From Octopus vulgaris (lineage: Eukaryota), in contig OX597827.1 of NCBI GenBank assembly GCA_951406725.2, positions 80,600,001-80,664,000 on the forward strand: a stretch of 64,000 nucleotides of DNA. Reading direction: 5' to 3'. Shown here piece by piece: positions 3,346-62,164 of the stretch; position 1 is the stretch's first letter; each line of letters opens with the position of its first letter. The translations under genes and the position numbers were made by a program. The notes under the pieces were generated by a model that did no database searches, was not told the origin of the DNA, and saw nothing but the letters and a program-made list of their open reading frames with translations.

Positions 3346-3419
3346 TTAGACATGTTTCACTGGTGTTTCCTCGCTAGAATCTCTTATTGATGTATCTTTG
3401 TTTTTATATATATTTTGAT
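3346..3419 (-). CDS. Pcdh: G1 terminal coding exon (DQNIYKNKDTSIRDSSEETPVKHV*)
   Basis: TGCAG acceptor, phase-1 join to the previous exon, in-frame 3-nt deletion relative to paralogs, TAA at 3346-3348. Confidence 0.8.
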
Positions 3420-3543
3420 CTGCAATTTAGATATAAAATAGATATTAACATACATACATAAATATATAAAAATAATATGAGGGAATATTATTCCAAACTA
3501 TTCTTTCATTATTGAATTGATAAAAGGTGGTTTCTTTGTAATT

Positions 3544-3595
<52 letters not shown>

Positions 3596-3716
3596 AAGGC
3601 AAAATCAGAAAAAGTTGATAAAAATTTACATGACAATAAAAATTATATCTACAAGATCTTATGCAATATGTACATTCCAGATGAAAATGTAGAATACAAC
3701 CAATGCAGCTATTAAC

Positions 3717-3870
3717 CTGAAACTCCTGGTATTTCTTCATAATGTTTCAGGTCTCCTTGTCTACCACTTCTCTTGGATGACATTGTATCTGATGTATAGT
3801 TACAAACCATAGTAGCATTATCTTCCACAGCATCATCACCTGATGTCACCACAACAGGTTGACAGTATTT
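3717..3870 (-). CDS. Pcdh: G1 cytoplasmic exon (KYCQP...HYEEIPGVS)
   Basis: CAACAG acceptor, G|GTTAAT donor, 154 nt, conserved in all copies. Confidence 0.85.
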
Positions 3871-4041
3871 CTGTTGACAAACAAACGAAAAGAAATGTGA
3901 GAAGACACCAAACAATGGAAGTTACAATCAACATGGAAAGAGAACAATTTAATATTGGAATGTATTATTGAAGTTAAAACATATTCAAAGAGATTTCATT
4001 GTTCAATTTTACAGAGAGAAAAATGTAATGTTTCCACTTAC

Positions 4042-6417
4042 TGGGGTAGGTTTTGGTAAAGTTCTCGACTGAACTGAAGATTCATATTTGTTCTGTAGCT
4101 GACCTTCTGCATAACATTCACTCTCTTGGATCTCTCAGAATAGATATTCCGCTTCACCATCTCTTCTGCATTCCTCGACATAGCAACAGAAGTGTTAGTC
4201 TGGTACAACAATTGTTTCATCTCTGCTCTACCTTGGTAGGCTGTATTCTTTGTGGCAGCAGCTGTGTTATCTCTGTGTTTAATACATTTCATAATACACA
4301 GCGTTATAGAAACAACAATAGCCACTGATATTATTACTGCTGATGATACAATGATAATAACCCATGTCATATGGACCCGGCCTGAAGATTGTAAAGGTCC
4401 ACTCTTCGACATTGGTGATGTCTCGTTACTAACAGCCAATACCAAAGTGACACTAGTTGTTGACGACTGAACTGGACTACCACTGTCCTTCACAACAAAC
4501 ACCAGCTCATAATTTCCAGCATCATTTAGATAAACTTGTCTGGAGAAGGATAAAGCACCACTGTGTGAGTTCATACTAAACAACTGTTTATCATTTCCTT
4601 GTATGATTGCATATCTGAGGAAAGCATTGTTTCCACTGTCCCCATCAGACGCTCTCAAAACTGTGATGTCACTCTTACTTCTGCGGATGGTACTGCACAT
4701 TTAGCGTGTAAGGGTCACTACTAGGATATGTAAAATACGGAGCATTGTCATTTTGATCTAGAATCTCAACAACAACATTCGCTGTGTCATTCAGAGATGG
4801 GCTTCCATTATCTTTGACAAAAACCTCAAACTTATACACATCTTGTTTCTCTCTGTCCAATGACATGGTCGCTGAAATGAAGCCATAACTGGTGATGAGA
4901 AATGGGAGATTGGATTTTTCTTTACGCAGCAGAGAATATGTGAGTTGTCCAGCAGATCCAAGATCAGGGTCAGTGGCATTGACAAAACCAATAGGGAAGT
5001 CTTTATCTTTGTTTTCGTAGGTGAGGAATTGGAATGTATCTTTGGTAAACTGTGGTTGTACATCGTTGATGTCAGTCACTTGGATAGAGAGGCTTTTAAC
5101 ACTTTTGAGAGGAGGTAATCCTTTATCTTGACAGGAGACAGGAATGTTATAGTGTCCTTGTGTTTCTCTGTCCACTGGTTTGTTTAGAATGATTTTATAT
5201 TCTTTAGATCCCATTGACTGTAGTTTGAATGTATCATGTTTGATATCACAGCTGACCTCTCCATTTTGTCCCACATCATTGTCAGTGACCATCACATAAG
5301 CAAGGAAACTACCAACTTTGATGTTTTCAGAAATGGTACCTGTGTTGTCACTGATTGCATTAACATAATCAATATCAATAGATGGAGGATTGTTGTGTTG
5401 GTTGATGACATTTACCAAAACGGTTGCAATAGAACTGATTGGGGGATTGCCTCCATCTCTGGCTTCTATAAATAATTCAAAAGTATTTTTTTCATTTAAA
5501 CTAGAAATTCTAGATAAAAATATTTTTCCAGTTTTTTCATCCAATTCGAAATATTTCTTTGCCAAATCAGAAGTTTTGGGGCTGAAATGGAAAGTAATTT
5601 TACTGTTGGATCCAATATCTTTGTCTGTCACTGACAAAGTAAGAATTGGCTTTGTCTTGTCGTGTGTGGTTCTAATTGAAATATTATAAAGGGGTTTTGA
5701 AAATACAGGTGGATTATCATTCTCATCTTCAACAACAATCTCAACATTTAACACACTCTGTTTAGATGGAGAACCTCCATCTTTAGCAATAACTTCTAAA
5801 TTGTATTTTTCTTTTAACTCTCTGTCTAATTTTTCTTTTAAAACAATATTTAACGAGGAAATACCATCAGCTCTTTTAGAAACTGACAAAGAAAATGAGT
5901 CATCAGATTTTTTAAGTTTATATTCAATGAAAGAATTTTGATAACTAACATCTTTGTCTATGGCATTTGGGATTGACTTTTTCATTCCTCTCCCATCACC
6001 TTCCCCAAAATGTAGTGTGATTTGTTTTTTAGGAAACTCTGGTTCGTGGTCATTAATATCTTCTATTACTATTTTGACTTTTAATATTTTTGTGAATGTT
6101 GCCACTTTCTTTATAATAATTTTTATAGTTCTGGAACATTCTTTGTTGAATGTGCAGAGATCTTCTGCATCCAGTGTCTGAGCAGTGTACAGTTTACCTG
6201 TTTTGGTGATGTTAAATAACTGTGCCACCTTTCGTTTGAATTGACTGAATGTTATCAAATGTTGGTCAGATGGTTTAACATTGTCTAAAAGTTTAGAATC
6301 GGCAGCAATGTCTGCTACATATGTTCCTGGACTTCTCTCTTCTTCCACATGGTAGGTAAGGTCTATGGTCAGGACACAGTGGACCAGTGACAATACAATA
6401 GACAATGATAGTAACAT
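4042..6417 (-). CDS. Pcdh: Protocadherin G1 main exon (signal peptide, EC1-6, TM); frameshifts near 4680 (+1) and 4120 (+2)
   Basis: DINDHEP/DENDNPP/DRE/DxD cadherin motifs, EC1 C-x5-C, TM WVIIIVSSAV; CCA|GTAAGT donor; acceptor upstream of 6461. Confidence 0.9.
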
Positions 6418-7529
6418 TTTGTCGCTGTGGTAAAAGAAATCAGATGTTTTGAGGATTGAACCTAAAATTAGAACACATTTACTTGATTAGATATTCTTAT
6501 AAATTAACCACAGTTTAAAATATGGAATTATTATTTTACATATGAAGATTCAAGTACAAATTAATAATTTTCTAGTCAATGTTTCTACAAAACCGTAAAA
6601 CAAAAACCACTACATACCCCATCACAATTTGAATAACCAAAGGTAGGATTTGAGCATTTCTATAGCAGAGATAATAGGACTAATAAATCCATCACAATGT
6701 AGTCCAATATGATCTAATTTTTGCAGTGAGTTGTAATCTATAATAGTCCACAATATCTAAAGTTTAGTAACTTCTGTTTATTGTTAGCTTTATGCCTCTG
6801 ACTGAATGATCCACTTCTATTTTTTAAACATCATTGTCAAAATATTCTGTCAGATTGTTTGCATCCCTCTGTTGTACCATGAATATAATATCAAACTGTT
6901 ACCTACTTTCTTCATAATCACCATAAGCATTGAAGTAGTCATAATCCAAAGATTCCTACAAATATTATTTCCTGATTATATTTACCTTCAGCTTCAAGGC
7001 AGGCTGAACAAAATTCTTAGTGGTATTTCTTCTGGTTTTAAATTCTGAGTTCAAATGCCACCAAAGTCAACTTTACCTTTCGTCCTTTCAGGTCAATCAC
7101 ATAAGTACCCCTTCCTCCAGAATTTCAGCCTTTGTGACCGTAGTTGAAAGGCTGTCTACATTCAGCTTCCTGGCTCTTACACTCCAGAAGTCTCTCGCTA
7201 TACACATTACATTCTCTCCATACTGGAGATCTTTCTATCGTTCGTATTGATTTGCTTTGCTTTTAGATTCGTTTTTAAAGGAGAAATAGAAATCAGGAAG
7301 CAGAAAGAGTTTTTGCTTACTTTCATGTCCATAGTTGTTGTTTAGGTTTTCCTCCAAGATCCACTGTCAACTATGTAGACTACTGAGTAAAAATGCTCTT
7401 CAACCCTCACTCTTATTATCAATCATATATTTGAGAGTAGAACTAATTTCTTGTCGGGTTTAACATACCATCTGCCACTCAGGTACCACTAGCAAAGTCA
7501 CCTCTGTGCAAGCATTGAAGCCAAGACTA

Positions 7530-12840: not shown

Positions 12841-12917
12841 TTAGACATGTTTCACTGGTGTTTCTTCACTGAAATCTTTTGATGTTGACGTATCATTGTT
12901 TTTATATATATTTTGAT
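12841..12917 (-). CDS. Pcdh: G2 terminal coding exon (DQNIYKNNDTSTSKDFSEETPVKHV*)
   Basis: TTCCAG acceptor, 77 nt, conserved frame and stop. Confidence 0.8.
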
Positions 12918-13099
12918 CTGGAATTTAGACAAAATATAGATTTTATAAATATATTAGCAAATATATTTATATATAAACACAAAGCCAAAATCACATCACA
13001 ATATTTTAAGCTGCAAAAGAAATTCTTTTTACAAATAGTAATTATGAGATGTCTACATTCTAGATGATAAAGCAAAATATAAACATTGTAGTTATTAAC

Positions 13100-13253
13100 C
13101 TGATACTCCTGGTATTTCTTCGTAATGTTTCAGGTCTCCTTGTCTACCACTTCTCTTGGATGACATTGTATCTGATGTATAGTTACAAACCATAGTAGCA
13201 TTATCTTCCACAGCATCATCACTTGATGTCACCACAACAGGTTGACAGTATTT
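13100..13253 (-). CDS. Pcdh: G2 cytoplasmic exon
   Basis: 154 nt, AG/GT boundaries, near-identical to paralogs. Confidence 0.85.
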
Positions 13254-13424
13254 CTGTTGACAAACAAACGATAAAGAAATGTGAGAAGACACCAAACAAT
13301 GGAAGTTACAATCAACATGGAGAGAAAACAATTTAATATTGGAATGTATTATTGAAGTTAAAACATATTCAAAGAGATTTCATTGTTCACTTTTACAGAG
13401 AGAAAATGTAATGTTTCCACTTAC

Positions 13425-15800
13425 TGGGGTAGGTTTTGGTAAAGTTCTCGACTGAACTGAAGATTCATATTTGTTCTGTAGCTGACCTTCTGCATAACAT
13501 TCACTCTTGGATCTCTCAGAATAGATATTCCGCTTCACCATCTCTTCTGCATTCCTCGACATAGCAACAGAAGTGTTAGTCTGGTACAACAATTGTTTCA
13601 TCTCTGCTCTACCTTGGTAGGCTGTATTCTTTGTGGCAGCAGCTGTGTTATCTCTGTGTTTAATACATTTCATAATACACAGTGTTATAGAAACAACAAT
13701 AGCCACTGATATTATTACTGCTGATGATACAATGATAATAACCCATGTCATATGGACCCGACCTGAAGATTGTAAAGGTCCACTCTTCGACATTGGTGAT
13801 GTCTCGTTACTAACAGCCAATACCAAAGTGACACTAGTTGTTGACGACTGAACTGGACTACCACTGTCCTTCACAACAAACACCAGCTCATAACTTCCAG
13901 CATCATTTAGATAAACTTGTCTGGAGAAGGATAAAGCACCACTGTGTGAGTTCATACTAAACAACTGTTTATCATTTCCTTGTTTGATTGCATATCTGAG
14001 GAAAGCATTGTTTCCACTGTCCCCATCAGAGGCTCTCAAAACTGTGATGTCACTCTTACTCTGTGGATGGTACTGCACATTTAGCGTGTAAGGGTCGTAC
14101 TACTAGGATATGTAAAATACGGAACATTGTCATTTTGATCTAGAATCTCAACAACAACATTCGCTGTGTCATTTAGAGATGGGCTTCCATTGTCTTTGAC
14201 AAAAACCTCAAACTTATACACATCTTGTTTCTCTCTGTCCAATGACATGGTCGCTGAAATGAAGCCATAACTGGTGATGAGAAATGGGAGATTGGATTTT
14301 TCTTTACGCAGCAGAGAATATGTGAGTTGTCCAGCAGATCCAAGATCAGGGTCAGTGGCATTGACAAAACCAATAGGGAAGTCTTTGTCTTTGTTTTCGT
14401 AGGTGAGGAATTGGAATGTATCTTTGGTAAACTGTGGTTGTACATCGTTGATGTCAGTCACTTGGATAGAGAGGCTTTTAACACTTTTAAGAGGAGGTAA
14501 TCCTTTATCTTGACAGGAGACAGGAATGTTATAGTGTCCTTGTGTTTCTCTGTCCACTGGTTTGTTTAGAATGATTTTATATTCTTTAGATCCCATTGAC
14601 TGTAGTTTGAATGTATCATGTTTGATATCACAGCTGACCTCTCCATTTTGTCCCACATCATTGTCAGTGACCATCACATAAGCAATAAAACTACCAACTT
14701 TGATGTTTTCAGAGATGGTAGCTGTGTTGTCATTGATTGCAGAAACATAATCAATATCAATATTTGGGGGATTGTTGTGTTGGTTGACAACATTTACTAA
14801 AACAGTTGCTATAGAACTAAAGGGTGGACTGCCCCCATCTCTGGCTTCTATAAACAATTCATAGGTTTTCTTTTTTCCCAGACTTGAATATTTTCTTAAT
14901 AAAATGCTTCCACTGGTTTCATTCAACTGAAAATAGCTTTTTACAATATCTGATGTCTTTGGGACTGAAATGGAAAGTAATTTTACCATTTTCACCAGCA
15001 ATCAGCATCAGTTACAGATAAAACAATGATGGGTTTGGATTTGTGATGCGTACTTTGTATGGATATATTGTACAGAGGTTTAGAAAACTCTGGTAGGTTG
15101 TCATTTACATCTATTATGGAAATATTTATATTCAAAATCCCTTGTTTTGCTGGTGAACCTCCATCTTTAGCTATGACTTGTAATATATATGTATCTTTGA
15201 TTTCTCGGTCTAATGATTCTTTCAAAACTATATTAAGAAGATATACCATCAGCTCTTTGAGACACTGACAGAGAGAATTTCTCCATTCTTTGATTTTAAT
15301 TTATATTGAATTAATGAATTTTGAAATCCAACATCTTTGTCTATGGCATTTGGTAACGATCTTTTAGCACCTTTACGATCATCTTCACCATATTCTATAT
15401 ACACTGTATTTTTTGGAAATTTAGGTTCATGGTCATTGATATCTTCTATTACTATCTTGATTTTTAATATTTTTGAAACACTGGTTCCTTTATTGACAAC
15501 AACTTTCATAGTTCTGGAACATTCTTTGTTGAAGGTGCAGAGATCTTCTGCATCCAGTGTCTGAGCAGTGTACAGTTTACCTGTTTTGGTGATGTTAAAT
15601 AACTGTGCCACCTTTCGTTTGAATTGACTGAATGTTATCAAATGTTGGTCAGATGGTTTAACATTGTCTAAAAGTTTAGAATCGGCAGCAATGTCTGCTA
15701 CATATGTTCCTGGACTTCTCTCTTCTTCCACGTGGTAGGTAAGGTCTATGGTCAGCACACACTGGACCATTGATAATACAATGGACAATGACAGTAACAT
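13425..15800 (-). CDS. Pcdh: Protocadherin G2 main exon, broken by about five 1-2 nt indels (possible pseudogene or consensus error)
   Basis: Four consecutive ORF pieces align to G4-G6; indels near 15280, 15240, 15000, 14960, 14097; acceptor at 15855. Confidence 0.8.
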
Positions 15801-15932
15801 ATTGCTGTTGTATGTTGGTAGTGGTTAAATATATCAAGGTATGTGTAGACTGAACCTAAAATAGAAATGCATGTCATTAGTTACAATACTGTTTAATATT
15901 GACATATAATTAAAACATCGATCTATCTGTCT

Positions 15933-24067: not shown

Positions 24068-24144
24068 TTAGACATGTTTCACTGGCGTTTCTTCACTGGA
24101 ATCTTTCGATGTAGATGCATCATTGTTTTTATATAAACTTTGAT
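24068..24144 (-). CDS. Pcdh: G3 terminal coding exon (DQSLYKNNDASTSKDSSEETPVKHV*)
   Basis: TTCCAG acceptor, 77 nt, conserved frame and stop. Confidence 0.8.
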
Positions 24145-24529
24145 CTGGAATTTGAATACGAAACACATTTTACAAAATTATGACTTTGATCAATTTCATA
24201 GTTAATAATTAAAAAATGTGGAAAGATGAGAATGAAAACTATTAAGATAACTATATTCAGGAGTGTGTTATCAGAAAATATTCACTAAAACTTTGATAAA
24301 TGAAGTTCATTCTGATACACGAACAATAGTATATAGGACTGGATTTCCCATGTTTGGTCCACTGCAGGACAAGGACGTCAGCATGTTCTCTCCACCAACC
24401 AGTCTGGTATGCAGGCTGTGGCTGTGACTTTGAGCTTGAGATCATACTGCTGTGACGAGACTGCACTGCCACACCAGCCTGATATGGCTTAGCAAAGGAA
24501 ATGCAGTTCTTTTTTTTTTAATATATACT

Positions 24530-24758
24530 CCGTGCCGGTGACACGTAAAAAGTACCAATCCGATCGTGGCCGTTGCTAGCCTCGCCTGGCACGTAAAAAG
24601 CACCCACTACACTCATGGAGTGGTTGGCATTAGGAAGGACATCCAGCTGTAGAAACACTGCCAGAGCAGACTGGTGCAGCCTTCTGGCTTCCCAGATCCC
24701 CGTTCGAACCGTCCAACCCATGCTAGCATGGAGAACGGACGTTTAGCGATGATGATGA
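24530..24758 (+). mobile_element. (GAT)n-tailed RTE-related repeat
   Basis: Same family as 58399-59130. Confidence 0.8.
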
Positions 24759-24833
24759 TACTTAATAGAAATAGTTGTTACTAAATGGTTAACACAAAAT
24801 GATGTCAGACATATTGCTGATGTACTTATTAAC

Positions 24834-24987
24834 CTGATACTCCTGGTATTTCTTCGTAATGTTTCAAGTCTCCATGTCTACCACTTCTCTTGGATGACAT
24901 TGTATCTGATGTATAGTTACAAACCATAGTAGCATTATCTTCCACAGCATCATCACTTGATGTCACCACAACAGGTTGACAGTATTT
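24834..24987 (-). CDS. Pcdh: G3 cytoplasmic exon
   Basis: 154 nt, AG/GT boundaries. Confidence 0.85.
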
Positions 24988-25157
24988 CTGTTGACAAACA
25001 AACGATAAAGAAATGTGAGAAGACACCAAACAATGGAAGTTACAATCAACATGGAAGAGAACAATTTAATATTGGAATGTATTATTGAAGTTAAAACATA
25101 TTCAAAGAGATTTCATTGTTCACTTTTACAGAGAGAAAATGTAATGTTTTCACTTAC

Positions 25158-27535
25158 TGGGGTAGGTTTTGGTAAAGTTCTCGACTGAACTGAAGATTCA
25201 TATTTGTTCTGTAGCTGACCTTCTGCATAACATTCACTCTTGGATCTCTCAGAATAGATATTCCGCTTCACCATCTCTTCTGCATTCCTCGACATAGCAA
25301 CAGAAGTGTTAGTCTGGTACAACAATTGTTTCATCTCTGCTCTACCTTGGTAGGCTGTATTCTTTGTGGCAGCAGCTGTGTTATCTCTGTGTTTAATACA
25401 TTTCATAATACACAGCGTTATAGAAACAACAATAGCCACGGATATTATTACTGCTGATGATACAATGATAATAACCCATGTCATATGGACCCGACCTGAA
25501 GATTGTAAAGGTCCACTTTTCGACATTGGTGATGTCTCATTACTAACAGCCAATACCAAAGTGACACTAGTTGTTGACGACTGAACTGGACTACCACTGT
25601 CCTTCACAACAAACACCAGCTCATAACTTCCAGCATCATTTAGATAAACTTGTCTGGAGAAGGATAAAGCACCACTGTGTGAGTTCATACTAAACAACTG
25701 TTTATCATTTCCTTGTATGATTGCATATCTGAGGAAAGCATTGTTTCCACTGTCCCCATCAGAGGCTCTCAAAACTGTGATGTCACTCTTACTCTGCGGA
25801 TGGTACTGCACATTTAGCGTGTAAGGGTCACTACTAGGATATGTAAAATACGGAGCATTGTCATTTTGATCTAGAATCTCAACAACAACATTCGCTGTGT
25901 CATTCAGAGATGGGCTTCCATTATCTTTGACAAAAACCTCAAACTTATACACATCTTGTTTCTCTCTGTCCAATGACATGGTCGCTGAAATGAAGCCATA
26001 ACTGGTGATGAGAAATGGGAGATTGGATTTTTCTTTACGCAGCAGAGAATATGTGAGTTGTCCAGCAGATCCAAGATCAGGGTCAGTGGCATTGACAAAA
26101 CCAATAGGGAAGTCTTTATCTTTGTTTTCGTATAGGTGAGGAATTGGAATGTATCTTTGGTAAACTGTGGTTGTACATCGTTGATGTCAGTCACTTGGAT
26201 AGAGAGGCTTTTAACACTTTTAAGAGGAGGTAATCCTTTATCTTGACAGGAGACAGGAATGTTATAGTGTCCTTGTGTTTCTCTGTCCACTGGTTTGTTT
26301 AGAATGATTTTATATTCTTTAGATCCCATTGACTGTAGTTTGAACGTATCATGTTTGATATCACAGCTGACCTCTCCATTTTGTCCCACATCATTGTCAG
26401 TGACCATCACATAAGCAATGAAACTACCAACTCTGGTATCTTCAGAAATGGTAGCTGTGTTGTCATTGACTGAAGAAACATAATCAATATCAATAGATGG
26501 AGGATTATTGTGTTGATTGATAACATTTACGAGGACTGTAGCTATAGAACTGAGGGGAGGGCTGCCCCCATCTCTGGCTTCTATAAACAATTCGTAGGTT
26601 TTCTTTTTCCCCAAACTTGAATATTCCCTTAACAAAATTTCCCCACTCGTTTCATTTAATTGAAAATAGCTTTTTGCTATATCTGATGTCTTTGGACTGA
26701 AATGGAAAGTAATTTTACCATTTTCACCAGAATCAGCATCTGTCACAGATAAAACAATGATGGGTTTGTCTTTATGATGTGTACTTTGTAAGGATATATT
26801 ATATAAAGGTTTAGAAAATACAGGTGGGTTGTCGTTCAAATCTATTATTGAGATATTTATATTTAAAATACCTTGTTTTGCTGGTGACCCTCCATCTTTA
26901 GCTATGACCTGTAATAAATATGTATCTTTGATTTCTCTGTCCAATGATTCTTTTAAGACTATTTTAAGAGAAGAAATTCCATCAGCTCTTTTAGACACTG
27001 ACAGAGAGAATGGTTCTCCATTCTTTGATTTTAATTTATATTGAATTAATGAATTTTGAAATCCAACATCTTTGTCTATGGCATTCGGTAGTGATACTTT
27101 AGAACCTTTACGATCATTTTCTCCAAATTCTATATACACTATAGTTTTTGGAAACTTAGGTTCATGGTCATTGATATCTTCTATTACAATTTTGATTTTT
27201 AATATCTTTGTAATACTTCTTCCTTTATTGACAACAACTTTCATAGTTCTAGAACATTCTTTGTTGAATGTGCAGAGATCTTCTGCATCCAGTGTCTGAG
27301 CAGTGTACAGTTTACCTGTTTTGGTGATGTTAAATAACTGTGCCACCTTTCGTTTGAATTGACTGAATGTTATCAAATGTTGGTCAGATGGTTTAACATT
27401 GTCTAAAAGTTTAGAATCGGCAGCAATGTCTGCTACATATGTTCCTGGACTTCTCTCTTCTTCCACATGGTAGGTAAGGTCTATGGTCAGGACACAGTGG
27501 ACCACTGACAATACAATAGACAATGACAGTAACAT
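25158..27535 (-). CDS. Pcdh: Protocadherin G3 main exon; single +2 (TA) frameshift near 26131
   Basis: Two ORFs (543 aa and 288 aa) join into the paralog frame if the extra TA is removed; acceptor at 27591. Confidence 0.88.
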
Positions 27536-39209: not shown

Positions 39210-39363
39210 CTGATACTCCTGGTATTTCTTCGTAATGTTTCAGGTCTCCATGTCTACCACTTCTCTTGGATGACATTGTATCTGATGTATAGTTACAAAC
39301 CATAGTAGCATTATCTTCCACAGCATCATCACTTGATGTCACCACAACAGGTTGACAGTATTT
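39210..39363 (-). CDS. Pcdh: G4 cytoplasmic exon
   Basis: 154 nt, CAG acceptor, G|GTAAAT donor. Confidence 0.87.
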
Positions 39364-39535
39364 CTGTTGACAAACAAACGATAAAGAAATGTGAGAAGAC
39401 ACCAAACAATGGAAGTTGACAATCAACATGGATAGAGAACAATTTAATATTGGAATGTATTATTGAAGTTAAAACATATTCAAAGAGATTTCATTGTTCA
39501 CTTTTACAGAGAGAAAATGTAATGTTTCCACTTAC

Positions 39536-41911
39536 TGGGGTAGGTTTTGGTAAAGTTCTTGACTGAACTGAAGATTCATATTTGTTCTGTAGCTGACCTT
39601 CTGCATAACATTCACTCTTGGATCTCTCAGAATAGATATTCCGCTTCACCATCTCTTCTGCATTCCTCGACATAGCAACAGAAGTGTTAGTCTGGTACAA
39701 CAATTGTTTCATCTCTGCTCTACCTTGGTAGGCTGTATTCTTTGTGGCAGCAGCTGTGTTATCTCTGTGTTTAATACATTTCATAATACACAGCGTTATA
39801 GAAACAACAATAGCCACTGATATTATTACTGCTGATGATACAATGATAATAACCCATGTCATATGGACCCGACCTGAAGATTGTAAAGGTCCACTCTTCG
39901 ACATTGGTGATGTCTCGTTACTAACAGCCAATACCAAAGTGACACTAGTTGTTGATGACTGAACTGGACTACCACTGTCCTTCACAACAAACACCAGCTC
40001 ATAACTTCCAGCATCATTTAGATAAACTTGTCTGGAGAAGGATAAAGCACCACTGTGTGAGTTCATACTAAACAACTGTTTATCATTTCCTTGTATGATT
40101 GCATATCTGAGGAAAGCATTGTTTCCACTGTCCCCATCAGAGGCTCTCAAAACTGTGATGTCACTCTTACTCTGCGGATGGTACTGCACATTTAGCGTGT
40201 AAGGGTCACTACTAGGATATGTAAAATACGGAGCATTGTCATTTTGATCTAGAATCTCAACAACAACATTCGCTGTGTCATTCAGAGATGGGCTTCCATT
40301 ATCTTTGACAAAAACCTCAAACTTATACACATCTTGTTTCTCTCTGTCCAATGACATGGTCGCTGAAATGAAGCCATAACTGGTGATGAGAAATGGGAGA
40401 TTGGATTTTTCTTTACGCAGCAGAGAATATGTGAGTTGTCCAGCAGATCCAAGATCAGGGTCAGTGGCATTGACAAAACCAATAGGGAAGTCTTTATCTT
40501 TGTTTTCGTAGGTGAGGAATTGGAATGTATCTTTGGTAAACTGTGGTTGTACATCGTTGATGTCAGTCACTTGGATAGAGAGGCTTTTAACACTTTTAAG
40601 AGGAGGTAATCCTTTATCTTGACAGGAGACAGGAATGTTATAGTGTCCTTGTGTTTCTCTGTCCACTGGTTTGTTTAGAATGATTTTATATTCTTTAGAT
40701 CCCATTGACTGTAGTTTGAATGTATCATGTTTGATATCACAGCTGACCTCTCCATTTTGTCCCACATCATTGTCAGTGACCATCACATAAGCAATGAAAC
40801 TACCAACTTTGATGTTTTCAGAAATGGTAGCTGTGTTGTCATTGATTGCATTAACATAATCAATATCAATAGCTGGAGGATTGTTGTGTTGGTTGATAAC
40901 ATTTACTAGAACTGTTGCTATAGAAATGAGAGGAGGGCTGCCCCCATCTCTGGCCTCTATAAATAGTTCATAGGTTTTCTTTTTCCCAAAATTTGAATAT
41001 TCCCTTAACAGAATATTTCCACTGGTTTCGTTCAATTGAAAATAGCTTTTTGCTATATCTGATGTCTTTGGACTGAAATGGAAAGTAATTTTACCATTTT
41101 CACCAGAATCAGCATCAGTTACAGATAAAACAATGATGGGTTTAGACTTATGATGTGTACTTTGTATGGATATATTATATAAAGGTTTAGAAAACTCTGG
41201 TGGGTTGTCGTTAACATCAATTACAGAAATATTTATATTCAAAATCCCTTGTTTTGCTGGCGACCCTCCATCTTTAGCTATGACTTGTAATAAATATGTA
41301 TCTTTGATTTCTCTGTCTAATGTTTCTTTTAAAACTATCTTAAGAGAAGAAATACCATCAGCTCTTTTAGACACTGACAGAGAGAATGGTTCTCCATTCT
41401 TTGATCGTAATTTATATTGTATTAAGGAGTTTTGAAATCCAACATCTTTGTCTATAGCATTGGGTATTGATCTTTTTGCACCTTTGCGATCATCTTCACT
41501 AAACAGTATATTGACATTTCTCATAGGAAAGTTTGGTTCATGGTCATTGATATCTTCTATTACGATTTTGATTTTTAATATTTTTGAAACACTGGTCCCT
41601 TTATTGACAACAACCTTCATAGTTCTGGAACATTCTTTGTTGAATGTGCAGAGATCTTCTGCATCCAGTGTCTGAGCAGTGTACAGTTTACCTGTTTTGG
41701 TGATGTTAAATAACTGTGCCACCTTTCGTTTGAATTGACTGAATGTTATCAAATGTTGGTCAGATGGTTTAACATTGTCTAAGAGTTTAGAATCGGCAGC
41801 AATGTCTGCTACATATGTTCCTGGACTTCTCTCTTCTTCCACATGGTAGGTGAGGTCTATGGTCAGGACACAGTGGACCATTGATAATACAATAGACAAT
41901 GGCAGGAACAT
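39536..41911 (-). CDS. Pcdh: Protocadherin G4 main exon, intact (792 codons)
   Basis: Uninterrupted ORF with 6 cadherin repeats and TM; donor CCA|GTAAGT; acceptor at 41966. Confidence 0.95.
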
Positions 41912-42171
41912 GTTGCTGTTGAGTGTTGGAATGATTAGCTATCTGAAGGTGTGGCATTGGTTGAACCTGAAATGGAAATATGTTTCCTTGAACAAATGTT
42001 ATAAGAAATAAGTTACAATTCAAACGATACAATTAACCATGGAAACATTAGAAATGTATGGCTGTAGTATTTTACAGCAATTCATTTGATAGATTAAAGT
42101 GTTTATGTCTCAATGCATCCATAGAAGCAAAGAACAACAACAACTGGTACAGTTCTATATTTAAGATATTG

Positions 42172-48981: not shown

Positions 48982-49024
<43 letters not shown>

Positions 49025-49827: not shown

Positions 49828-49904
49828 TTAAACATGTTTCACTGGTGTCTCTTCACTGGAATCTTTTGATGTAGATGTATCATTGTTTTTATATATACTT
49901 TGAT
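49828..49904 (-). CDS. Pcdh: G5 terminal coding exon (DQSIYKNNDTSTSKDSSEETPVKHV*)
   Basis: TTTCAG acceptor, 77 nt. Confidence 0.82.
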
Positions 49905-50451
49905 CTGAAATTTAGAGACAGAATACATTATAAATGTGGCATTTATGTTGATGATTTAATCAAAGATATGACAATAAAAGAGAAAAATATGATGATGATA
50001 TAAACATATTTCGGATTCAAAAGCAGAGAAATATTTCTAGGGAAATGACAAGTGGCCAAGGGCTTTTGTGATAAGCCATGCTTTAGAAGATTTGTCAAGC
50101 CACATGAAATCATAAACGTTACTAGTGCCAGTGTCATGTGATAGGCACCCATCCCAGTGGCACATGAAAGCAACTGCCGTGCCAGTGGCATGTAAAAAGC
50201 AGCCATTACAATCTTGGAGTGGTTGGCACCCAGCTGTACAAACCATACCAAACAAGACTGGAGCTTGGCGTAGCTCTTCAGCTTACCAATTCCAATCAAG
50301 CCATCTAACCCATGCCAGCATGGAAAGCAGATGCCGAATGATGATGATGATGGGTAATTTATCCTTTACTAATTACTATAACTTATAAGTTTATAACAAA
50401 TAACTGCTAATATCTATGCATGAAGGACATATTGTCAATGTAGTTGCTAAC

Positions 50452-50605
50452 CTGATACTCCTGGTATTTCTTCGTAATGTTTCAACTCTCCATGTCTACC
50501 ACTTCTCTTGGATGACATTGTATCTGATGTATAGTTACAAACCATAGTAGCATTATCTTCCACAGCATCATCACTTGATGTCACCACAACAGGTTGACAG
50601 TATTT
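50452..50605 (-). CDS. Pcdh: G5 cytoplasmic exon
   Basis: 154 nt, G|GTTAGC donor. Confidence 0.87.
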
Positions 50606-50776
50606 CTGTTGACAAACAAACGATAAAGAAATGTGAGAAGACACCAAACAATGGAAGTTACAATCAACATGGAAAGAGAACAATTTAATATTGGAATGTA
50701 TTATTGAAGTTAAAACATATTCAAAGAGATTTCATTGTTCACTTTTACAGAGAGAAAATGTAATGTTTCCACTTAC

Positions 50777-53152
50777 TGGGGTAGGTTTTGGTAAAGTTCT
50801 CGACTGAACTGAAGATTCATATTTGTTCTGTAGCTGACCTTCTGCATAACATTCACTCTTGGATCTCTCAGAATAGATATTCCGCTTCACCATCTCTTCT
50901 GCATTCCTCGACATAGCAACAGAAGTGTTAGTCTGGTACAACAATTGTTTCATCTCTGCTCTACCTTGGTAGGCTGTATTCTTTGTGGCAGCAGCTGTGT
51001 TATCTCTGTGTTTAATACATTTCATAATACACAGCGTTATAGAAACAACAATAGCCACTGATATTATTACTGCTGATGATACAATGATAATAACCCATGT
51101 CATATGGACCCGACCTGAAGATTGTAAAGGTCCACTCTTCGACATTGGTGATGTCTCGTTACTAACAGCCAATACCAAAGTGACACTAGTTGTTGACGAC
51201 TGAACTGGACTACCACTGTCCTTCACAACAAACACCAGCTCATAACTTCCAGCATCATTGAGATAAACTTGTCTGGAGAAGGATAAAGCACCACTGTGTG
51301 AGTTCATACTAAACAACTGTTTATCATTTCCTTGTATGATTGCATATCTGAGGAAAGCATTGTTTCCACTGTCCCCATCAGAGGCTCTCAAAACTGTGAT
51401 GTCACTCTTACTCTGCGGATGGTACTGCACATTTAGCGTGTAAGGGTCACTACTAGGATATGTAAAATACGGAGCATTGTCATTTTGATCTAGAATCTCA
51501 ACAACAACATTCGCTGTGTCATTCAGAGATGGGCTTCCATTATCTTTGACAAAAACCTCAAACTTATACACATCTTGTTTCTCTCTGTCCAATGACATGG
51601 TCGCTGAAATGAAGCCATAACTGGTGATGAGAAATGGGAGATTGGATTTTTCTTTACGCAGCAGAGAATACGTGAGTTGTCCAGCAGATCCAAGATCAGG
51701 GTCAGTGGCATTGACAAAACCAATAGGGAAGTCTTTATCTTTGTTTTCGTAGGTGAGGAATTGGAATGTATCTTTGGTAAACTGTGGTTGTACATCGTTG
51801 ATGTCAGTCACTTGGATAGAGAGGCTTTTAACACTTTTGAGAGGAGGTAATCCTTTATCTTGACAGGAGACAGGAATGTTATAGTGTCCTTGTGTTTCTC
51901 TGTCCACTGGTTTGTTTAGAATGATTTTATATTCCTTGGATCCCATTGACTGTAGTTTGAATGTATCATGTTTGATATCACAGCTGACCTCTCCATTTTG
52001 TCCCACATCATTGTCAGTGACCATCACATAAGCAATGAAACTACCGACTTTAATGTTTTCAGAGATGGTAGCTGTGTTGTCATTGATTGCAGAAACATAA
52101 TCAATATCAATATTTGGGGGATTGTTGTGTTGATTGATAACATTTACCAGAACAGTTGCTATGGAATTGAGAGGTGGAATACCTCCGTCTCTGGCTTCTA
52201 CAAATAATTCATAGGTTTTCTTTTTTCCCAGATTTGAATATTCCCTCAACAGAATATTTCCACTGGTTTTATTTAACTGAAAATAGCTTTTTGCTAGATC
52301 TGATGTCTTTGGACTGAAATGGAAAGTAATTTTGCCATTTTCACCAGAATCAGCATCTGTTACAGATAAAACAATGATGGGTTTGGATTTATGATGTGTA
52401 CTTTGTATGGATATATTATATAAAGGTTTAGAAAATACAGGTGGGTTGTCGTTTAAATCTATTATTGAGATATTTATATTCAAAATACCTTGTTTTGCTG
52501 GTGAACCTCCATCTTTAGCTATGACTTGTAATAAATATGTATCTTTGATTTCTCTGTCTAATGATTCTTTTAAAACTATTTTAAGTGAAGAAATACCATC
52601 AGCTCTTTTAGACACTGACAGAGAGAATGGTTCTCCATTCTTTGATTTTAATTTATATTGAATTAAGGAGTTTTGAAATCCAACATCTTTGTCCATGGCA
52701 TTCGGTATTGATCTTTTTGAACTGATACGGTCATCTTCTCCAAACTGTATATTCACATTCTTTATAGGAAACTCTGGTTCATGGTCATTGATATCTTCTA
52801 TAACAATTTTGATTTTTAATATTTTTGAAACACTGATTCCTTTATTGACAACAACTTTCATAGTTCTAGAACATTCTTTGTTGAATGTGCAGAGATCTTC
52901 TGCATCCAGTGTCTGAGCAGTGTACAGTTTACCTGTTTTGGTGATGTTAAATAACTGTGCCACCTTTCGTTTGAATTGACTGAATGTTATCAAATGTTGG
53001 TCAGATGGTTTAACATTGTCTAAAAGTTTAGAATCGGCAGCAATGTCTGCTACATAGGTTCCTGGACTTCTCTCTTCTTCCACATGGTAGGTAAGGTCTA
53101 TGGTCAGGACACAGTGGACCATTGATAATACAATGGACAATGACAATAACAT
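50777..53152 (-). CDS. Pcdh: Protocadherin G5 main exon, intact (792 codons)
   Basis: Uninterrupted cadherin ORF; acceptor at 53193. Confidence 0.95.
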
Positions 53153-53851
53153 TGTGTTGAGGTGAAGCTGTCCAGGTTTGTTTCAGACTGACCCTAAAAC
53201 AAATATATTTACTTGGTTAATTATAATCAAAAACATGTCACAGTTTAAGTATACGATAATTAGTAAAGTATTAGAAATGCATTACTATCATTTTGCAACT
53301 GTACTTCTATAGAATAAAAGCCCAATCCAATGATTTAAGTTTCAATGTTTTTACACATTTGAAGACAATAATAATAGCCATGTTGTCCAAGAAATAGTAT
53401 TGGAGTCAAGACTGGGATTAAATAACTTAATTATAGAAATTTTACTTAAGGGAATTCAGTTGGTGAGTTTGAATGTGAAACCCTGCAATTGGATCTAACT
53501 GAAATTGCTTGGGCTATCTGGTTCTAGATGGAACACTTTCAAGCGACATAAAGCCATCCAGGTCCAGTTACAACTCAAAAGCTCCACCAGAATCCTTCAA
53601 CTAAGGACTGAACTGACCACTAAGGTGGAAACAAAGTGATTAGAAAACTGGAAAACTGTTTCCTCATTGTTTGTTGTAATTGTTCCCCTGCGTAGGATCA
53701 CACTTTAGTTTAACCCTTCAAATATGGTTGAGCAGAAGCAGCAGCACTGCTTAAGAATCTGCTCAAGTGCCATTGGCAGATACAGCAAATCTTAACCTAT
53801 TAGAGAAGAGCAGCCATTACGAAGTTTCAACAACAAAAAAACTGCAACAAT

Positions 53852-58158: not shown

Positions 58159-58235
58159 TTATACATGCTTCACTGGTGTTTCTTCCGTGGATTCCTTTCT
58201 TGTAGAAGTGTCATTGTTTTTATAAATACTTTGAT
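58159..58235 (-). CDS. Pcdh: G6 terminal coding exon (DQSIYKNNDTSTRKESTEETPVKHV*)
   Basis: TTCCAG acceptor, 77 nt, several synonymous changes relative to paralogs. Confidence 0.82.
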
Positions 58236-58398
58236 CTGGAAAAGAAATACAACATGTATTACAAACGGACGTTCTTGGATATTTATAAAAGACAATAATA
58301 GGAAACGAGTAACAGAAACAAGATAAAATGATAATGTAGATAAATTCTAATACTTGTTATGGAAAAACAGAAAATATTTTAGGAATCCGGTATGTAAA

Positions 58399-59130
58399 TC
58401 ATCATCATGATCGTTTAACGTCCATTTTCCATGCTAGCATGTGTTGGACGGTTCAACCGGGATCTGGGAAGCCAGGTAGCTGCACCAGGCTCCAGTCTGA
58501 TCTAGCAGTGTTTCTACAGCAGGATGCCCTTCCTAATGCCAACCATGCCGTGAGTGTAGTGGGTGCTTATTACGTGCCACCGACACAGGTGGCAGGCGAG
58601 GCGGCGCTGGCAACGGCCACATTTGGATGAATCTTTTTACATGCCACCGGCACTGGTATCACAACTACAATTTCCATCGATTTTGATTTCGCTTGCCTCA
58701 ACAGGTCTTCGCAAGCAGAGTTTTGTGTCCCAAGGAGGAAAGGTATGCATAAGTGGACTGGCTACATCCCAGGAAGAGGCCACAGGTTATGGGCTCACCT
58801 GTCCTGCCGGGTCTTCTCACGCACAGCATATTTCCAAAGGTCTCAGTCACTAGTCATTGCCTCGGTGAAACCAAATGTTCAAAGGTTGTGCTTCATGACC
58901 TCGTCCCAGGTCTTCCTCTTCTGCAGGTTCCCTCAACCGCTAGGGTGTGGCACTTATTCACACACCTATCTTCATCCATTCTCGCTACATGACCATACCA
59001 GTGCAATTGTCTCTCTTGTACACCACAACTGATGCTTCTTAGGTCCAACTTTTCTCTCGAGGTACTTACACTCTGTCGATTATGAACACTGACATTACAC
59101 ATCCATCAGAGCATACTGGCTTCATTTCTT
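58399..59130 (-). mobile_element. 5'-truncated RTE-clade LINE (ORF end + 3' region + GAT tail)
   Basis: ERQLHWYGHVARMDEDR...EGTCRRGRP continues directly into the abundant GAT-tailed repeat. Confidence 0.8.
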
Positions 59131-59234
59131 GCGAGCAGAAATGAAATAATTTATTATTAGAAACAATTATAAATCTGTTAACAGTGTTATGAACAATTTT
59201 CAGATGATTTCAAGATAAAATATAACTAATGTAC

Positions 59235-59388
59235 CTGATACTCCTGGTATTTCTTCATAATGTTTCAAGTCTCCTTGTCTACCACTTCTCTTGGATGACA
59301 TTGTATCTGATGTATAGTTACAAACCATAGTAGCATTATCTTCCACAGCATCATCACTTGATGTCACCACAACAGGTTGACAGTATTT
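59235..59388 (-). CDS. Pcdh: G6 cytoplasmic exon
   Basis: 154 nt, G|GTACAT donor. Confidence 0.87.
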
Positions 59389-59559
59389 CTGTTGACAAAC
59401 AAACGATAAAGAAATGTGAGAAGACACCAAACAATGGAAGTTACAATCAACATGGAAAGAGAACAATTTAATATTGGAATGTATTATTGAAGCTAAAACA
59501 TATTCAAAGAGATTTCATTGTTCACTTTTACAGAGAGAAAATGTAATGTTTTCACTTAC

Positions 59560-61935
59560 TGGGGTAGGTTTTGGTAAAGTTCTCGACTGAACCGAAGATT
59601 CATATTTGTTCTGTAGCTGACCTTCTGCATAACATTCACTCTTGGATCTCTCAGAATAGATATTCCGCTTCACCATCTCTTCTGCATTCCTCGACATAGC
59701 AACAGAAGTGTTAGTCTGGTACAACAATTGTTTCATCTCTGCTCTACCTTGGTAGGCTGTATTCTTTGTGGCAGCAGCTGTGTTATCTCTGTGTTTAATA
59801 CATTTCATAATACACAGCGTTATAGAAACAACAATCGCCACTGATATTATTACTGCTGATGATACAATGATAATAACCCATGTCATATGGACCCGACCTG
59901 AAGATTGTAAAGGTCCACTCTTCGACATTGGTGATGTCTCGTTACTAACAGCCAACACCAAAGTGACACTAGTTGTTGACGACTGAACTGGACTACCACT
60001 GTCCTTCACAACAAACACCAGCTCATAACTTCCAGCATCATTGAGATAAACTTGTCTGGAGAAGGATAAAGCACCACTGTGTGAGTTCATACTAAACAAC
60101 TGTTTATCATTTCCTTGTATGATTGCATATCTGAGGAAAGCATTGTTTCCACTGTCCCCATCAGAGGCTCTCAAAACTGTGATGTCACTCTTACTCTGCG
60201 GATGGTACTGCACATTTAGCGTGTAAGGGTCACTACTAGGATATGTAAAATACGGAGCATTGTCATTTTGATCTAGAATCTCAACAACAACATTCGCTGT
60301 GTCATTCAGAGATGGGCTTCCATTGTCTTTGACAAAAACCTCAAACTTATACACATCTTGTTTCTCTCTGTCCAATGACATGGTCGCTGAAATGAAGCCA
60401 TAACTGGTGATGAGAAATGGGAGATTGGATTTTTCTTTACGCAGCAGAGAATATGTGAGTTGTCCAGCAGATCCAAGATCAGGGTCAGTGGCATTGACAA
60501 AACCAATAGGGAAGTCTTTATCTTTGTTTTCGTAGGTGAGGAATTGGAATGTATCTTTGGTAAACTGTGGTTGTACATCGTTGATGTCAGTCACTTGGAT
60601 AGAGAGGCTTTTAACACTTTTAAGAGGAGGTAATCCTTTATCTTGACAGGAGACAGGAATGTTATAGTGTCCTTGTGTTTCTCTGTCCACTGGTTTGTTT
60701 AGAATGATTTTATATTCCTTGGATCCCATTGACTGTAGTTTGAATGTATCATGTTTGATATCACAGCTGACCTCTCCATTTTGTCCCACATCATTGTCAG
60801 TGACCATCACATAAGCAATGAAACTACCAACTTTGATGTTTTCAGAGATGGTAGCTGTGTTGTCATTGATTGCAGAAACATAATCAATATCAATAGATGG
60901 AGGATTGTTGTGTTGGTTGATAACATTTACTAAAACAGTTGCTATAGAAATGAGAGGAGGGCTGCCCCCATCTCTAGCCGCAACAAATAGTTCATATGCT
61001 TTCTTTTTTCCCAGACTTGAATATTCCCTTAATAAAATGCTTCCACTGGTTTCATTTAATTGAAAATAACTTTTTGCTATATCTGATGTCTTTGGACTGA
61101 AATGGAAAGTAATTTTACCATTTTCACCAGAATCAGCATCAGTCACAGATAAAACAATGATGGGTTTAGATTTGTGATGCGTACTTTGTATGGATATATT
61201 ATATAAAGGTTTAGAAAACTCTGGTGGGTTGTCATTCACATCTATTATAGAAATATTTATGTTTAAAATACCTTGTTTTGCTGGTGACCCTCCATCTTTA
61301 GCTATGACTTGTAATAAATATGTATCTTTGATTTCTCTGTCTAATGATTCTTTTAAAACTATTTTAAGAGAAGAAATACCATCAGCTCTTTTAGACACTG
61401 ACAGAGAGAATGGTTCTCCATTCTTTGATTTTAATTTATATTGTATTAATGAGTTTTGAAATCCAACATCTTTATCTATGGCATTTGGTAGTGATACTTT
61501 AGAACCTTTACTATCATTTTCATCAAACTGTATGTTAACATTCTTTATAGGAAACTCAGGGTGATGGTCATTAATATCTTCTATTACTATTTTGATTTTT
61601 AATATTTTTGAAACACTGGTTCCTTTATTGACAACAACTTTCATAGTTCTGGAACATTCTTTGTTGAATGTGCAGAGATCTTCTGCATCCAGTGTCTGAG
61701 CAGTGTACAGTTTACCTGTTTTGGTGATGTTAAATAACTGTGCCACCTTTCGTTTGAATTGACTGAATGTTATCAAATGTTGGTCAGATGGTTTAACATT
61801 GTCTAAAAGTTTAGAATCGGCAGCAATGTCTGCTACATATGTTCCTGGACTTCTCTCTTCTTCCACATGGTAGGTAAGGTCTATGGTCAGGACACACTGG
61901 ACCAGTGACAATACAACAGACAATGACAGTAACAT
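59560..61935 (-). CDS. Pcdh: Protocadherin G6 main exon, intact (792 codons)
   Basis: Uninterrupted cadherin ORF; probable acceptor at 61991; leader exon presumably beyond the window. Confidence 0.95.
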
Positions 61936-62164
61936 GTTGTAGTTGAGTGTTGGTACTGGTTAAAAATGTCTCAGGATACTGAACATAAAATCTAAAACAG
62001 AAACAAAAGTCCATCATTTAACAAGAGTTCAATGTAGTGTAACAGAAAATTATTTATTAGGCATCATTTCACAACCTTGTTCACATAAATCTAAAGTAAA
62101 TGTTAATCAATGATTCTTGTGAAAAAGAATTTCTTCCATGCAAGACTTCCAAGAATGGCAAGGC

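Follow-up and report, generated by a model that had tools for sequence, protein, structure and literature searches.

The closest described counterparts of the genes treated here are the clustered protocadherins of coleoid cephalopods, which form sub-arrays of tandem, same-strand, multi-exon copies of whole genes (Styfhals et al., 2019, PMC6339937; Albertin et al., 2022, PMC9068888; Jiang et al., 2022, PMC9795677). The same arrangement is found in the DNA analysed here, a window of 64,000 nucleotides (nt) of Octopus vulgaris (assembly GCA_951406725.2, contig OX597827.1, positions 80,600,001 to 80,664,000), of which positions 3346..61991 hold six protocadherin genes, all on the minus strand. Coleoid arrays have been ascribed to full-gene duplication, with gene conversion suggested in general terms (PMC9068888, PMC6339937), and octopus sub-clusters of 34 and 27 genes have been reported (Albertin et al., 2022, PMC9068888). 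The cephalopod expansion is considered independent of the vertebrate one (PMC9068888, PMC10084454). The question of a recognition code has stood since the octopus genome, and a review describes the adhesion specificity of cephalopod protocadherins as wholly uncharacterised (PMC6339937).

In the vertebrate clustered protocadherins synonymous divergence (dS) is highest in extracellular cadherin repeats (EC) 2-3 and lowest in the outer repeats (Noonan 2004, summarised in PMC3966226 and PMC4978886), and the mouse alpha genes are 96% identical in EC1, 69% in EC2, 59% in EC3 and 98% in EC5 (PMC4978886, PMC3966226). The octopus genes resemble the vertebrate alpha and gamma genes in that one large exon encodes six EC repeats and that EC1 covaries with EC4 and EC2 with EC3 (PMC5001838, PMC5106212, PMC8901172). 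In both, the outer repeats are converted and EC2-3 spared, the octopus tract being additionally converted in short pieces. The proteins are, however, only about 30-33% identical; the transmembrane segment (TM), tail, intron and exon 3 are homogenised copies in octopus instead of shared constant exons, and the vertebrate linkers are canonical whereas the octopus EC3-EC4 calcium ligands are lost and the EC4 partner sites shifted. Delta-protocadherins (PCDH8/10/17/18/19) give the best PDB matches in sequence and fold and have the same ancestral antiparallel EC1-4 interface, but they are single dispersed genes with family cross-reactivity, neither arrayed nor converted. Vertebrate Pcdh-beta genes, like the octopus ones, each encode their own tail and use no constant exons, although they are single-exon genes and the octopus genes have at least three coding exons. 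Among invertebrates, insect Dscam1 and the shortened Dscam of chelicerates are likewise described as clustered variable-plus-constant recognition codes, but they have an immunoglobulin fold, and their diversity arises from the choice of promoter or from splicing onto constant exons that are shared. The array to which the window genes belong is one of the known coleoid arrays and not of the vertebrate cluster; it is its sequence evolution that resembles the latter.

Here we describe how ectopic conversion keeps two parts of these genes near-identical while the tract between them stays diverse, and how the two ends of that tract remain matched within each gene. Full-text searches returned no paper that treats conversion at domain level, covariation or the linker for the protocadherins of cephalopods; most subscription papers lay outside their reach, so an earlier mention is possible. 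The domain-level conversion pattern and the end covariation may be new in cephalopods; the arrays, conversion in general and the vertebrate pattern have already been published.

Constant and variable parts of the genes

The six genes, G1 to G6 in order of position, are genes B21-B26 in a tandem sub-array of 27 octopod clustered protocadherin genes (array B). A search of the species' own genome with EC1 DNA gave at least 27 copies of at least 93% identity at C14:80.40-80.67 Mb, all on the minus strand, below which EC1 identity falls to 79%. Since only part of the candidates was scored in the own-genome searches (the best 40 of 87 and the best 40 of 95), gene counts are lower bounds. Ectodomain and TM are encoded in a single large exon 2 (residues 1-792), followed by an intron 2 of 171-172 nt, an exon 3 of 154 nt and a short last coding exon. 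Pfam recognizes one Cadherin_2 and five Cadherin stretches in the array protein, which also has a TM and a cytoplasmic tail; protocadherins are its top PDB matches by sequence and by fold, and the closest named proteins are protocadherins of O. vulgaris, O. sinensis, O. bimaculoides and Argonauta hians. For the whole-array analysis each gene was projected onto G4, which is intact. The edge gene B00 was left out of the 27-gene counts, and B01, whose downstream exon is unlike that of the other genes, was omitted from the sliding window and wherever intron 2 or exon 3 was averaged. The parts of G4, all on the minus strand, and the equivalent tracts of the other genes are as follows:

41624..41860, minus strand: homogenised EC1 core, residues 18-96 (dS 0.055 and nonsynonymous divergence, dN, 0.0004 over 27 genes)
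40793..41620, minus strand: variable tract, residues 98-373 (EC1 F-G loop, EC2, EC3, EC4 A-strand/loop; dS 0.18-0.67)
41471..41524, minus strand: EC2 A-strand/A-B loop, codons 130-147; variability is highest here, and the motif types recur in Argonauta
39210..40792, minus strand: homogenised tract (rest of EC4, EC5, EC6, TM, tail, intron 2, exon 3), ending at the exon 3 donor
G1 ~5302-6126, G2 ~14684-15509, G3 26417-27244, G5 52034-52861, G6 60817-61644, minus strand: equivalents of the G4 variable tract, computed from ATG offsets

Among the six genes, 297 of the 338 variable columns fall inside 828 nt, or 31% of the 2648 aligned nt (signal peptide excluded). Synonymous divergence is 0.044 in the EC1 core, 0.38 in the EC1 F-G part, 0.50 in EC2, 0.71 in EC3 and 0.13 at the EC4 N-terminus, and then drops to 0.038 in the rest of EC4, 0.023 in EC5, 0.033 in EC6 and 0.028 in TM plus tail; 1.2% of the intron 2 sites and 1.8% of the exon 3 sites differ. 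The profile over 27 genes is nearly the same, with dS of 0.055 (EC1 18-96), 0.54 (EC1 97-127), 0.52 (EC2), 0.67 (EC3) and 0.18 (EC4 348-373), followed after residue 373 by 0.039 (rest of EC4), 0.034 (EC5), 0.041 (EC6) and 0.029 (TM plus tail), and with 1.9% and 1.7% of sites differing in intron 2 and exon 3 (26 genes). Domain identities are 99.9% in EC1, 80% in EC2, 84% in EC3, 99.7% in EC5 and 98.7% in EC6, and variation peaks at residues 98-108, 125-147 and 292-307 and near 233, 286, 325 and 356.

A preliminary description of this DNA, made from the letters alone, had placed the variable tract of G4 at 40793-41620, which proves correct, and had stated that nearly all differences lie there; a clear majority do, the exact share being 88% (297/338). 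It had taken EC1 and EC4 as constant, which applies to the EC1 core and the rest of EC4 (dS 0.044 and 0.038) but not to EC1 98-127 (EC1 F-G dS 0.38) or EC4 348-373 (dS 0.13), and these variable edges were absent from it. G1, described as divergent in the tract yet matching on both sides, is indeed so; it carries a second type of EC2-3 (class II, see below). Constant and variable parts are far from equal in dS (0.03-0.06 against 0.52-0.67).

Concerted evolution of the constant parts

The array was compared with that of Argonauta (21 rows from 20 of 22 identifiers, P0008 and P0013 being lost at the motif split and P0135 giving two rows) and with a partial O. sinensis set (15 rows from 10 identifiers, with 15 of 24 cluster-1 members listed; P0144f is left out of the 14-row counts). 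Argonauta carries the same array with its own species-specific constant sequence. Between Octopus and Argonauta, residues 374-792 show 41 near-fixed differences and no shared variable site, whereas residues 97-373 show one fixed difference and 88 shared variable sites. The two genera separate in the constant-region tree (100 in the Shimodaira-Hasegawa-like approximate likelihood ratio test, SH-aLRT), while the first split of the EC2-3 tree is between two classes, I and II, both present in Octopus and Argonauta, and monophyly of Octopus on EC2-3 is rejected (approximately unbiased test, p-AU 0.002).

Neighbouring genes are 99% identical in their constant tracts, while the flanks of most are unalignable (55-62% in forced alignment). 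GC at fourfold sites in the EC1 core, variable and constant parts is 0.29/0.23/0.32 in the array against 0.17/0.25/0.25 in a single solitary control gene. In both DNA-type read runs intron 2 assembles as one contig, with depths of 1136 and 468 against 31 and 7 on unique flank, depth not being copy number. Each window gene carries its own exons 3 and 4, and RNA-type contigs join adjacent exons.

A second sub-array repeats the pattern. Array A (C14:79.17-79.39 Mb, L028-L050) has at least 26 genes, lies ~1.2 Mb away and has ~55% protein identity to array B; its dS along the gene (26 genes) is 0.064/0.56/0.60/0.43/0.21/0.054/0.037/0.029/0.025, with profile and edges as in array B. Three ENA proteins of another subfamily also fit, with 93-96% identity in the EC1 core, 68-79% in EC2 and 92-98% in the rest of EC4. 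The signal peptide of array A is near-uniform too, but alignment showed no such uniformity in the sequence beyond its exon 2 donor. A third group at C14:79.47-79.61 Mb (L051-L059) is ~89% identical to array A in its constant part, and in L060 an EC1 resembling that of array A (95%) is combined with an EC4 loop of the array B kind.

We regard it as nearly certain that ectopic conversion keeps the EC1 core and the part from EC4 to exon 3 near-identical within a species. The preliminary description had proposed concerted evolution of private constant copies, and it is borne out on both counts: by the ~15-fold contrast in dS, the homogenised intron 2 and the species-specific constant part on the one hand, and by RNA joints that splice each gene's own exons, together with trans-species variable classes, on the other. 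The per-domain trees with related species that it called for group the constant part by species and EC2-3 by class.

Whole-gene distances make the arrays look younger than their variable classes are. As the EC2-3 classes are common to Argonauta, the published 8-14 Ma burst (PMC9795677), if it covers array B, may partly reflect homogenisation. Short-read expression counts for the array genes are unreliable outside the variable tract and the untranslated regions (UTRs).

Reshuffling within the variable tract

The variable tract retains old variants found across species, reshuffled in short pieces, so that each gene has a distinct combination. Four-gamete incompatibility starts at 0.34 and levels off at 0.57 once sites are ~60 nt apart (p=0.0005 in a test like the pairwise homoplasy index, PHI), linkage reaches background within ~50-100 nt, and in the four class I genes shown the nearest paralog switches almost every 92 nt. 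All 27 tracts are distinct, the closest pair differing by 10 amino acids and the median pair by 43. Genes B14 and B15, with flanks 96-97% identical, have tracts of 86.6% identity and 43 amino-acid differences, equal to the array median. B13-B15 (C14:80,526,000-80,546,300) share kilobases of common flank at 95-96%, as after a recent tandem duplication, with variable tracts already unlike.

Matched ends of the variable tract

Against this background of short-range shuffling, distant amino-acid sites stay matched within each gene: the EC1 F-G loop with the EC4 A-loop, and codon 191 with codon 328. The G4 sites concerned are the following:

41570..41611, minus strand: EC1 F-G loop, codons 101-114, covarying with EC4 codons 356-367
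40811..40846, minus strand: EC4 A-strand/loop, codons 356-367 (358 D/Y, 361 A/G, 366 N/D/K)
41339..41341, minus strand: codon 191 (EC2 strand E, K/N), covarying with codon 328
40928-40930, minus strand: codon 328 (EC3 F-G loop, L versus I/F), covarying with codon 191

In array B, 17 of 2291 nonsynonymous site pairs at least 300 nt apart reach r2>=0.8, as against 0/4299 mixed and 0/1575 synonymous pairs; in array A (L041, L049 and L050 excluded) the figures at r2>=0.75 are 6/2767, 0/4237 and 0/1595. In the class I scans, from which class II genes were left out, 191K~328L heads 7512 distant pairs, holding in 22/22 genes (p=5.9e-6, just past Bonferroni); the EC1 loop 101-114 goes with 358/361 in 21/22 (p=4.7e-5), and 106R with 366D/367T comes next. 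The 191~328 match holds in 27/27 rows of O. vulgaris, 20/21 of Argonauta and 12/14 of O. sinensis. Counted over independent pairs, the direction agrees in 6/6 (191~328, p=0.031), about 4.5/5 and 5/6 cases and is never reversed. An N-type EC1 loop is combined with G361 in none of 62 rows, and a K-type loop with A361 in 5/27.

The top of 6838 pairs in array A joins K112 to an acidic EC4 loop (K112~D372, 16/16), at the same positions as 106/366 of array B, and the match held in 9/10 array A genes fetched afterwards. Among 97 array rows, which are not independent, the charges at 106/366 are ++ in 0, -- in 2, +- in 25 and -+ in 11, and in 98 other octopod rows, likewise not independent, a basic 106 is paired with an acidic 366 in 50/50. 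The EC1 type switches 8-10 times on inner-tract trees, and each array has only 3-4 types of matched EC1/EC4 state.

Eight of the nine genes L051-L059 avoid a basic 112 without an acidic 372, the exception being L054. The top distant pair of Argonauta class I (P0138, P0139, P0141-P0143, P0003) is 138G~307S, with 15/15; it is a candidate EC2-EC3 contact and is not among the top pairs of O. vulgaris.

Position of the matched sites on the protein

In vertebrate dimers the loop after EC4 beta1a touches the EC1 beta6-beta7 loop, F86 being central and EC4 320-321 being contact positions (PMC5001838); 84-338 and 123-300 are among the top intermolecular couplings, and Y161 is in contact with K302 (10.1101/493106). 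Residue numbers were transferred by hand counts on alignments: octopus 106 corresponds to gammaB 84, a member of the top-ranked coupled pair of vertebrates (84-338), octopus 356-366 to vertebrate 320-327, octopus 191 to 163, and octopus 328 to alpha7 L301, the position of an alpha7 mutant listed in PMC8901172. That mutant is presumably L301R, and trans-interface mutants lose binding (PMC8901172). By these alignments the covarying sites appear to lie on or beside known trans surfaces in an antiparallel topology, with the EC4 partner shifted from 338. The octopus EC4 A-loop has an insertion of 3-6 residues.

The predicted EC1-4 monomer has a pLDDT (predicted local distance difference test) of 87.8 and a pTM (predicted template modelling score) of 0.58, which leaves the interdomain angles unsure; its best matches are protocadherin structures, and it aligns with extended vertebrate EC1-4 structures at TM scores of about 0.7-0.8. 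The predicted G4 EC1-4 homodimer scored 0.01 with the alignment unused and carries no weight either way, and a single-sequence fold of EC1-6 (pLDDT 34) was set aside.

The EC1-2, EC2-3 and EC4-5 linker motifs are canonical in 121-129 of 128-129 octopod rows. With canonical EC1-2 and EC2-3 linkers EC1 should not reach its own EC4, so that the contact would be intermolecular. The EC3-EC4 linker is degenerate, a point that the preliminary description lacked:

40880..40894, minus strand: G4 EC3-EC4 linker, codons 340-344, NQHNN replacing DxNDN, EC3-side calcium ligands gone

The EC3-EC4 linker of one Lottia protein is also non-canonical, and loss of the EC3-side ligands may be a mollusc-wide feature.

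Proposed mechanism and alternatives

The explanation that we favour, with a probability of roughly 0.7, combines conversion, a retained and shuffled tract, and a self-matching antiparallel homodimer. Conversion homogenises the EC1 core and the part from EC4 to exon 3, while the tract between keeps old variants and is shuffled in short pieces. Selection would preserve the matching because the surfaces touch across an antiparallel trans homodimer: a gene would be functional only where the EC1 and EC4 that it encodes fit each other, and likewise its EC2 and EC3, which would imply homophilic pairing. The topology of the covariation lends indirect support to such an EC1:EC4/EC2:EC3 interface, which is probably present. 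With EC5 and EC6 99.7% and 98.7% identical any cis contact would be isoform-blind, and uniform EC5-6, TM and tail could allow all isoforms to combine in cis and to signal in the same way. Isoform-blind cis pairing is a requirement of the vertebrate zipper model, with which the uniform octopus EC5-6 and tail would comply, and the homogenised copies would fill the role of the vertebrate shared constant exons. In the last and weakest step the isoform set would label neurons for self-recognition, along the lines of the neuronal identity code put forward in the preliminary description, which would entail stochastic expression, strict homophily and self-avoidance; by analogy with vertebrates this might be a stochastic barcode, although we lean against it. 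It can equally be put forward only tentatively that octopods independently built a self-recognition barcode in which conversion replaces constant exons and shuffles interface cassettes and selection removes misfit copies. If so, the arrays would record their own lock-and-key rules in sequence, and the dimer would have a calcium-poor EC3-EC4 hinge, unseen so far in a binding protocadherin. Residues that can be named for swaps are 106/108 with 358/361/366, 191 with 328, and the 130-147 cassette. The convergence with vertebrates that the preliminary description proposed would extend only to the expansion and the conversion pattern; the binding mode was probably inherited from an ancestral protocadherin, as the antiparallel EC1-4 interface is considered ancestral (PMC5001838).

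A number of observations weigh against this explanation. Pairwise counts gave no window of 10 codons with more nonsynonymous than synonymous differences (pN>pS; the top window has 0.32 against 0.51), and dN/dS is 0.25 in EC2 and 0.14 in EC3; the diversity of the tract is therefore old and retained, not visibly driven. Two of the three independent-pair tests miss 0.05 (median p 0.125 and 0.0625), the strong linkage amounts to just three block pairs, and within a single array Bonferroni correction is passed only by 191~328, the cause of which may be intramolecular or indirect. Matching has exceptions in B27, L045, L054, one O. bimaculoides fragment with 191K/328F, and four Argonauta class II genes with a K-type EC1 loop yet A361. 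The EC4-side partners map to 320-327 and not to 338, so the dimer register may differ. In the octopod rows D340 of the EC3-EC4 linker is present in 3/128 and D343 in 0/128, the EC4-side ligands being retained, and mouse alphaC1, with an incomplete EC3:EC4 linker, fails to aggregate cells (PMC8901172). The EC1-4 identity is at least 92% in 92/351 pairs, at or above that of the closest strictly specific vertebrate pair, and vertebrate EC1:EC4 contributes to affinity more than to specificity (PMC5001838). Octopus protocadherins are partly cell-type enriched and partly ubiquitous, with ~21 per neuron (PMC9712504). Vertebrate genes have a CTCF-type promoter element, whereas blastn of the 3 kb upstream of the 27 array ATGs found no element common to all (first exons not located, motif search not run).

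The last two points, on expression and promoters, favour a reading that keeps the conversion and the self-matching dimer but sees in the genes a code of cell-type adhesion in which family members cross-react, rather than a stochastic barcode of single neurons. Most of the explanation above is compatible with it, the final step being the sole difference, and we put it not far short of an even chance. Clustered and non-clustered genes show no clear difference in expression (PMC9712504), and the single-cell data, as that paper presents them, do not address stochastic choice. The small number of matched EC1/EC4 types and the delta-protocadherins, which have the same interface yet cross-react, also speak for it, but the 27 different tracts out of 27 and the young duplicate pair that is fully diverged suggest pressure for distinct copies. 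A non-canonical assembly, in which the covarying surfaces meet in a shifted register, at a bent EC3-EC4 hinge or in a cis contact, is suggested by the degenerate linker, with ligands lost across 128-129 octopod rows and a non-canonical counterpart in Lottia, and by the shifted EC4 partners and the A-loop insertion. It appears unlikely in view of the antiparallel pairing (1 with 4, 2 with 3), of canonical EC1-2/EC2-3 linkers that should on geometrical grounds bar EC4 from folding back to EC1, and of the agreement of the model, for all its pTM of 0.58, with extended vertebrate structures.

It could also be held that conversion is real while the tract is an island of neutral divergence, where old differences depress the conversion rate, and its matched ends a leftover of ancestry. 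Conversion requires homology and is self-reinforcing, dN/dS is below 1 everywhere and there are few independent block pairs, but this is improbable for a tract recombined every 50-100 nt, in which long-range linkage lacks synonymous sites, the EC1 type changed repeatedly and one and the same pair of sites covaries in keeping with charge, both in three species and in two arrays of ~55% identity. Collapsed or polished consensus, the artefact that the preliminary description had warned of, finds some footing in the 1-2 nt frameshifts of 6/27 genes, since the assembly may be imperfect; it is effectively refuted, because the constant sequence is species-specific and the intron 2 contig very deep in 2/2 DNA-type runs, private substitutions persist in the copies (dS 0.03-0.06), and the pattern is seen in three separately assembled species. 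Recent whole-gene duplication followed by fast adaptive change of EC2-3, without any conversion, would agree with the tandem duplication of B13-B15 and the published burst (PMC9795677). The species-by-domain pattern already rules this out for practical purposes: synonymous sites diverge in the tract too and not amino acids alone, most neighbours have unalignable flanks beside 99% identical constant tracts, and the variable classes are older than the Octopus-Argonauta split.

Gene models and other features

The ATGs of G1-G6 are at 6417, 15800, 27535, 41911, 53152 and 61935, and the genes, all on the minus strand, are arranged as follows, indel positions being from projection on G4:

3346..6461, minus strand: G1 (B21, class II EC2-3); exon 2 6461-4042, exon 3 3870-3717, exon 4 coding 3419-3346; frameshifting insertions near 4680 and near 4126
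12841..15855, minus strand: G2 (B22); exon 2 to 13425, exon 3 13253-13100, exon 4 coding 12917-12841; five 1-2 nt indels near 15278, 15238, 14999, 14963 and 14098
24068..27591, minus strand: G3 (B23); exon 2 to 25158, exon 3 24987-24834, exon 4 coding 24144-24068; 2-nt insertion near 26134
37820..41966, minus strand: G4 (B24), intact, reference; exon 2 to 39536, exon 3 39363-39210, exon 4 coding 37896-37820
49828..53193, minus strand: G5 (B25), intact; exon 2 to 50777, exon 3 50605-50452, exon 4 coding 49904-49828
58159..61991, minus strand: G6 (B26), intact; exon 2 to 59560, exon 3 59388-59235, exon 4 coding 58235-58159

Exon 2 is open in 21/27 array B genes, G1, G2 and G3 being among the six with frameshifts, which may reflect either assembly error or a pseudogene. 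In G2, four of the five indels are absent from pooled contigs, which merge paralogs, in 3-4 of four read runs, and ~15238 gave no row. The G2 joints 13253>13425 and 12917>13100 were found in 2/2 RNA-type and 0/2 DNA-type runs, run types being guessed and contigs pooling paralogs.

At the array edge, B00 (L022/L023, ATG C14:80,381,266) has a divergent EC1 and exon 3, yet is fully homogenised from EC4 to the tail. B27 has tail deletions of 108 and 3 nt and violates the EC1/EC4 rule. The constant region also occurs as orphan fragments, near C14:80,387,500-80,388,200 and 80,682,000-80,682,700.

Among the non-coding features, an element of 550-1000 nt and 75-85% identity, probably a conserved 3' UTR segment, lies 3' of every window gene. 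Two stretches upstream of G1 and G4 only are 83% identical and may be a first exon or a small repeat. A dispersed repeat resembling short interspersed nuclear elements (SINE-like, ~250-300 nt) occurs between the genes in many copies. Between G3 and G4 lies a remnant resembling long interspersed nuclear elements (LINE-like); Pfam recognizes a fragment of an endonuclease in it (Exo_endo_phos, E 5.7e-7) and has no match for the open reading frame upstream of that. Their positions are:

1498-2235, 10743-11739, 23320-23865, 36577-37245, 48566-49374, 56407-57204: six copies of the 3' non-coding element
7550-7787 and 42180-42419: non-coding pair upstream of G1 and G4
24528-24759, 29709-30027, 43535-43810, 53857-54134, 54680-54990, 58398-58656, 62202-62887, both orientations: SINE-like repeat copies
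31267-33119, minus strand: LINE-like remnant

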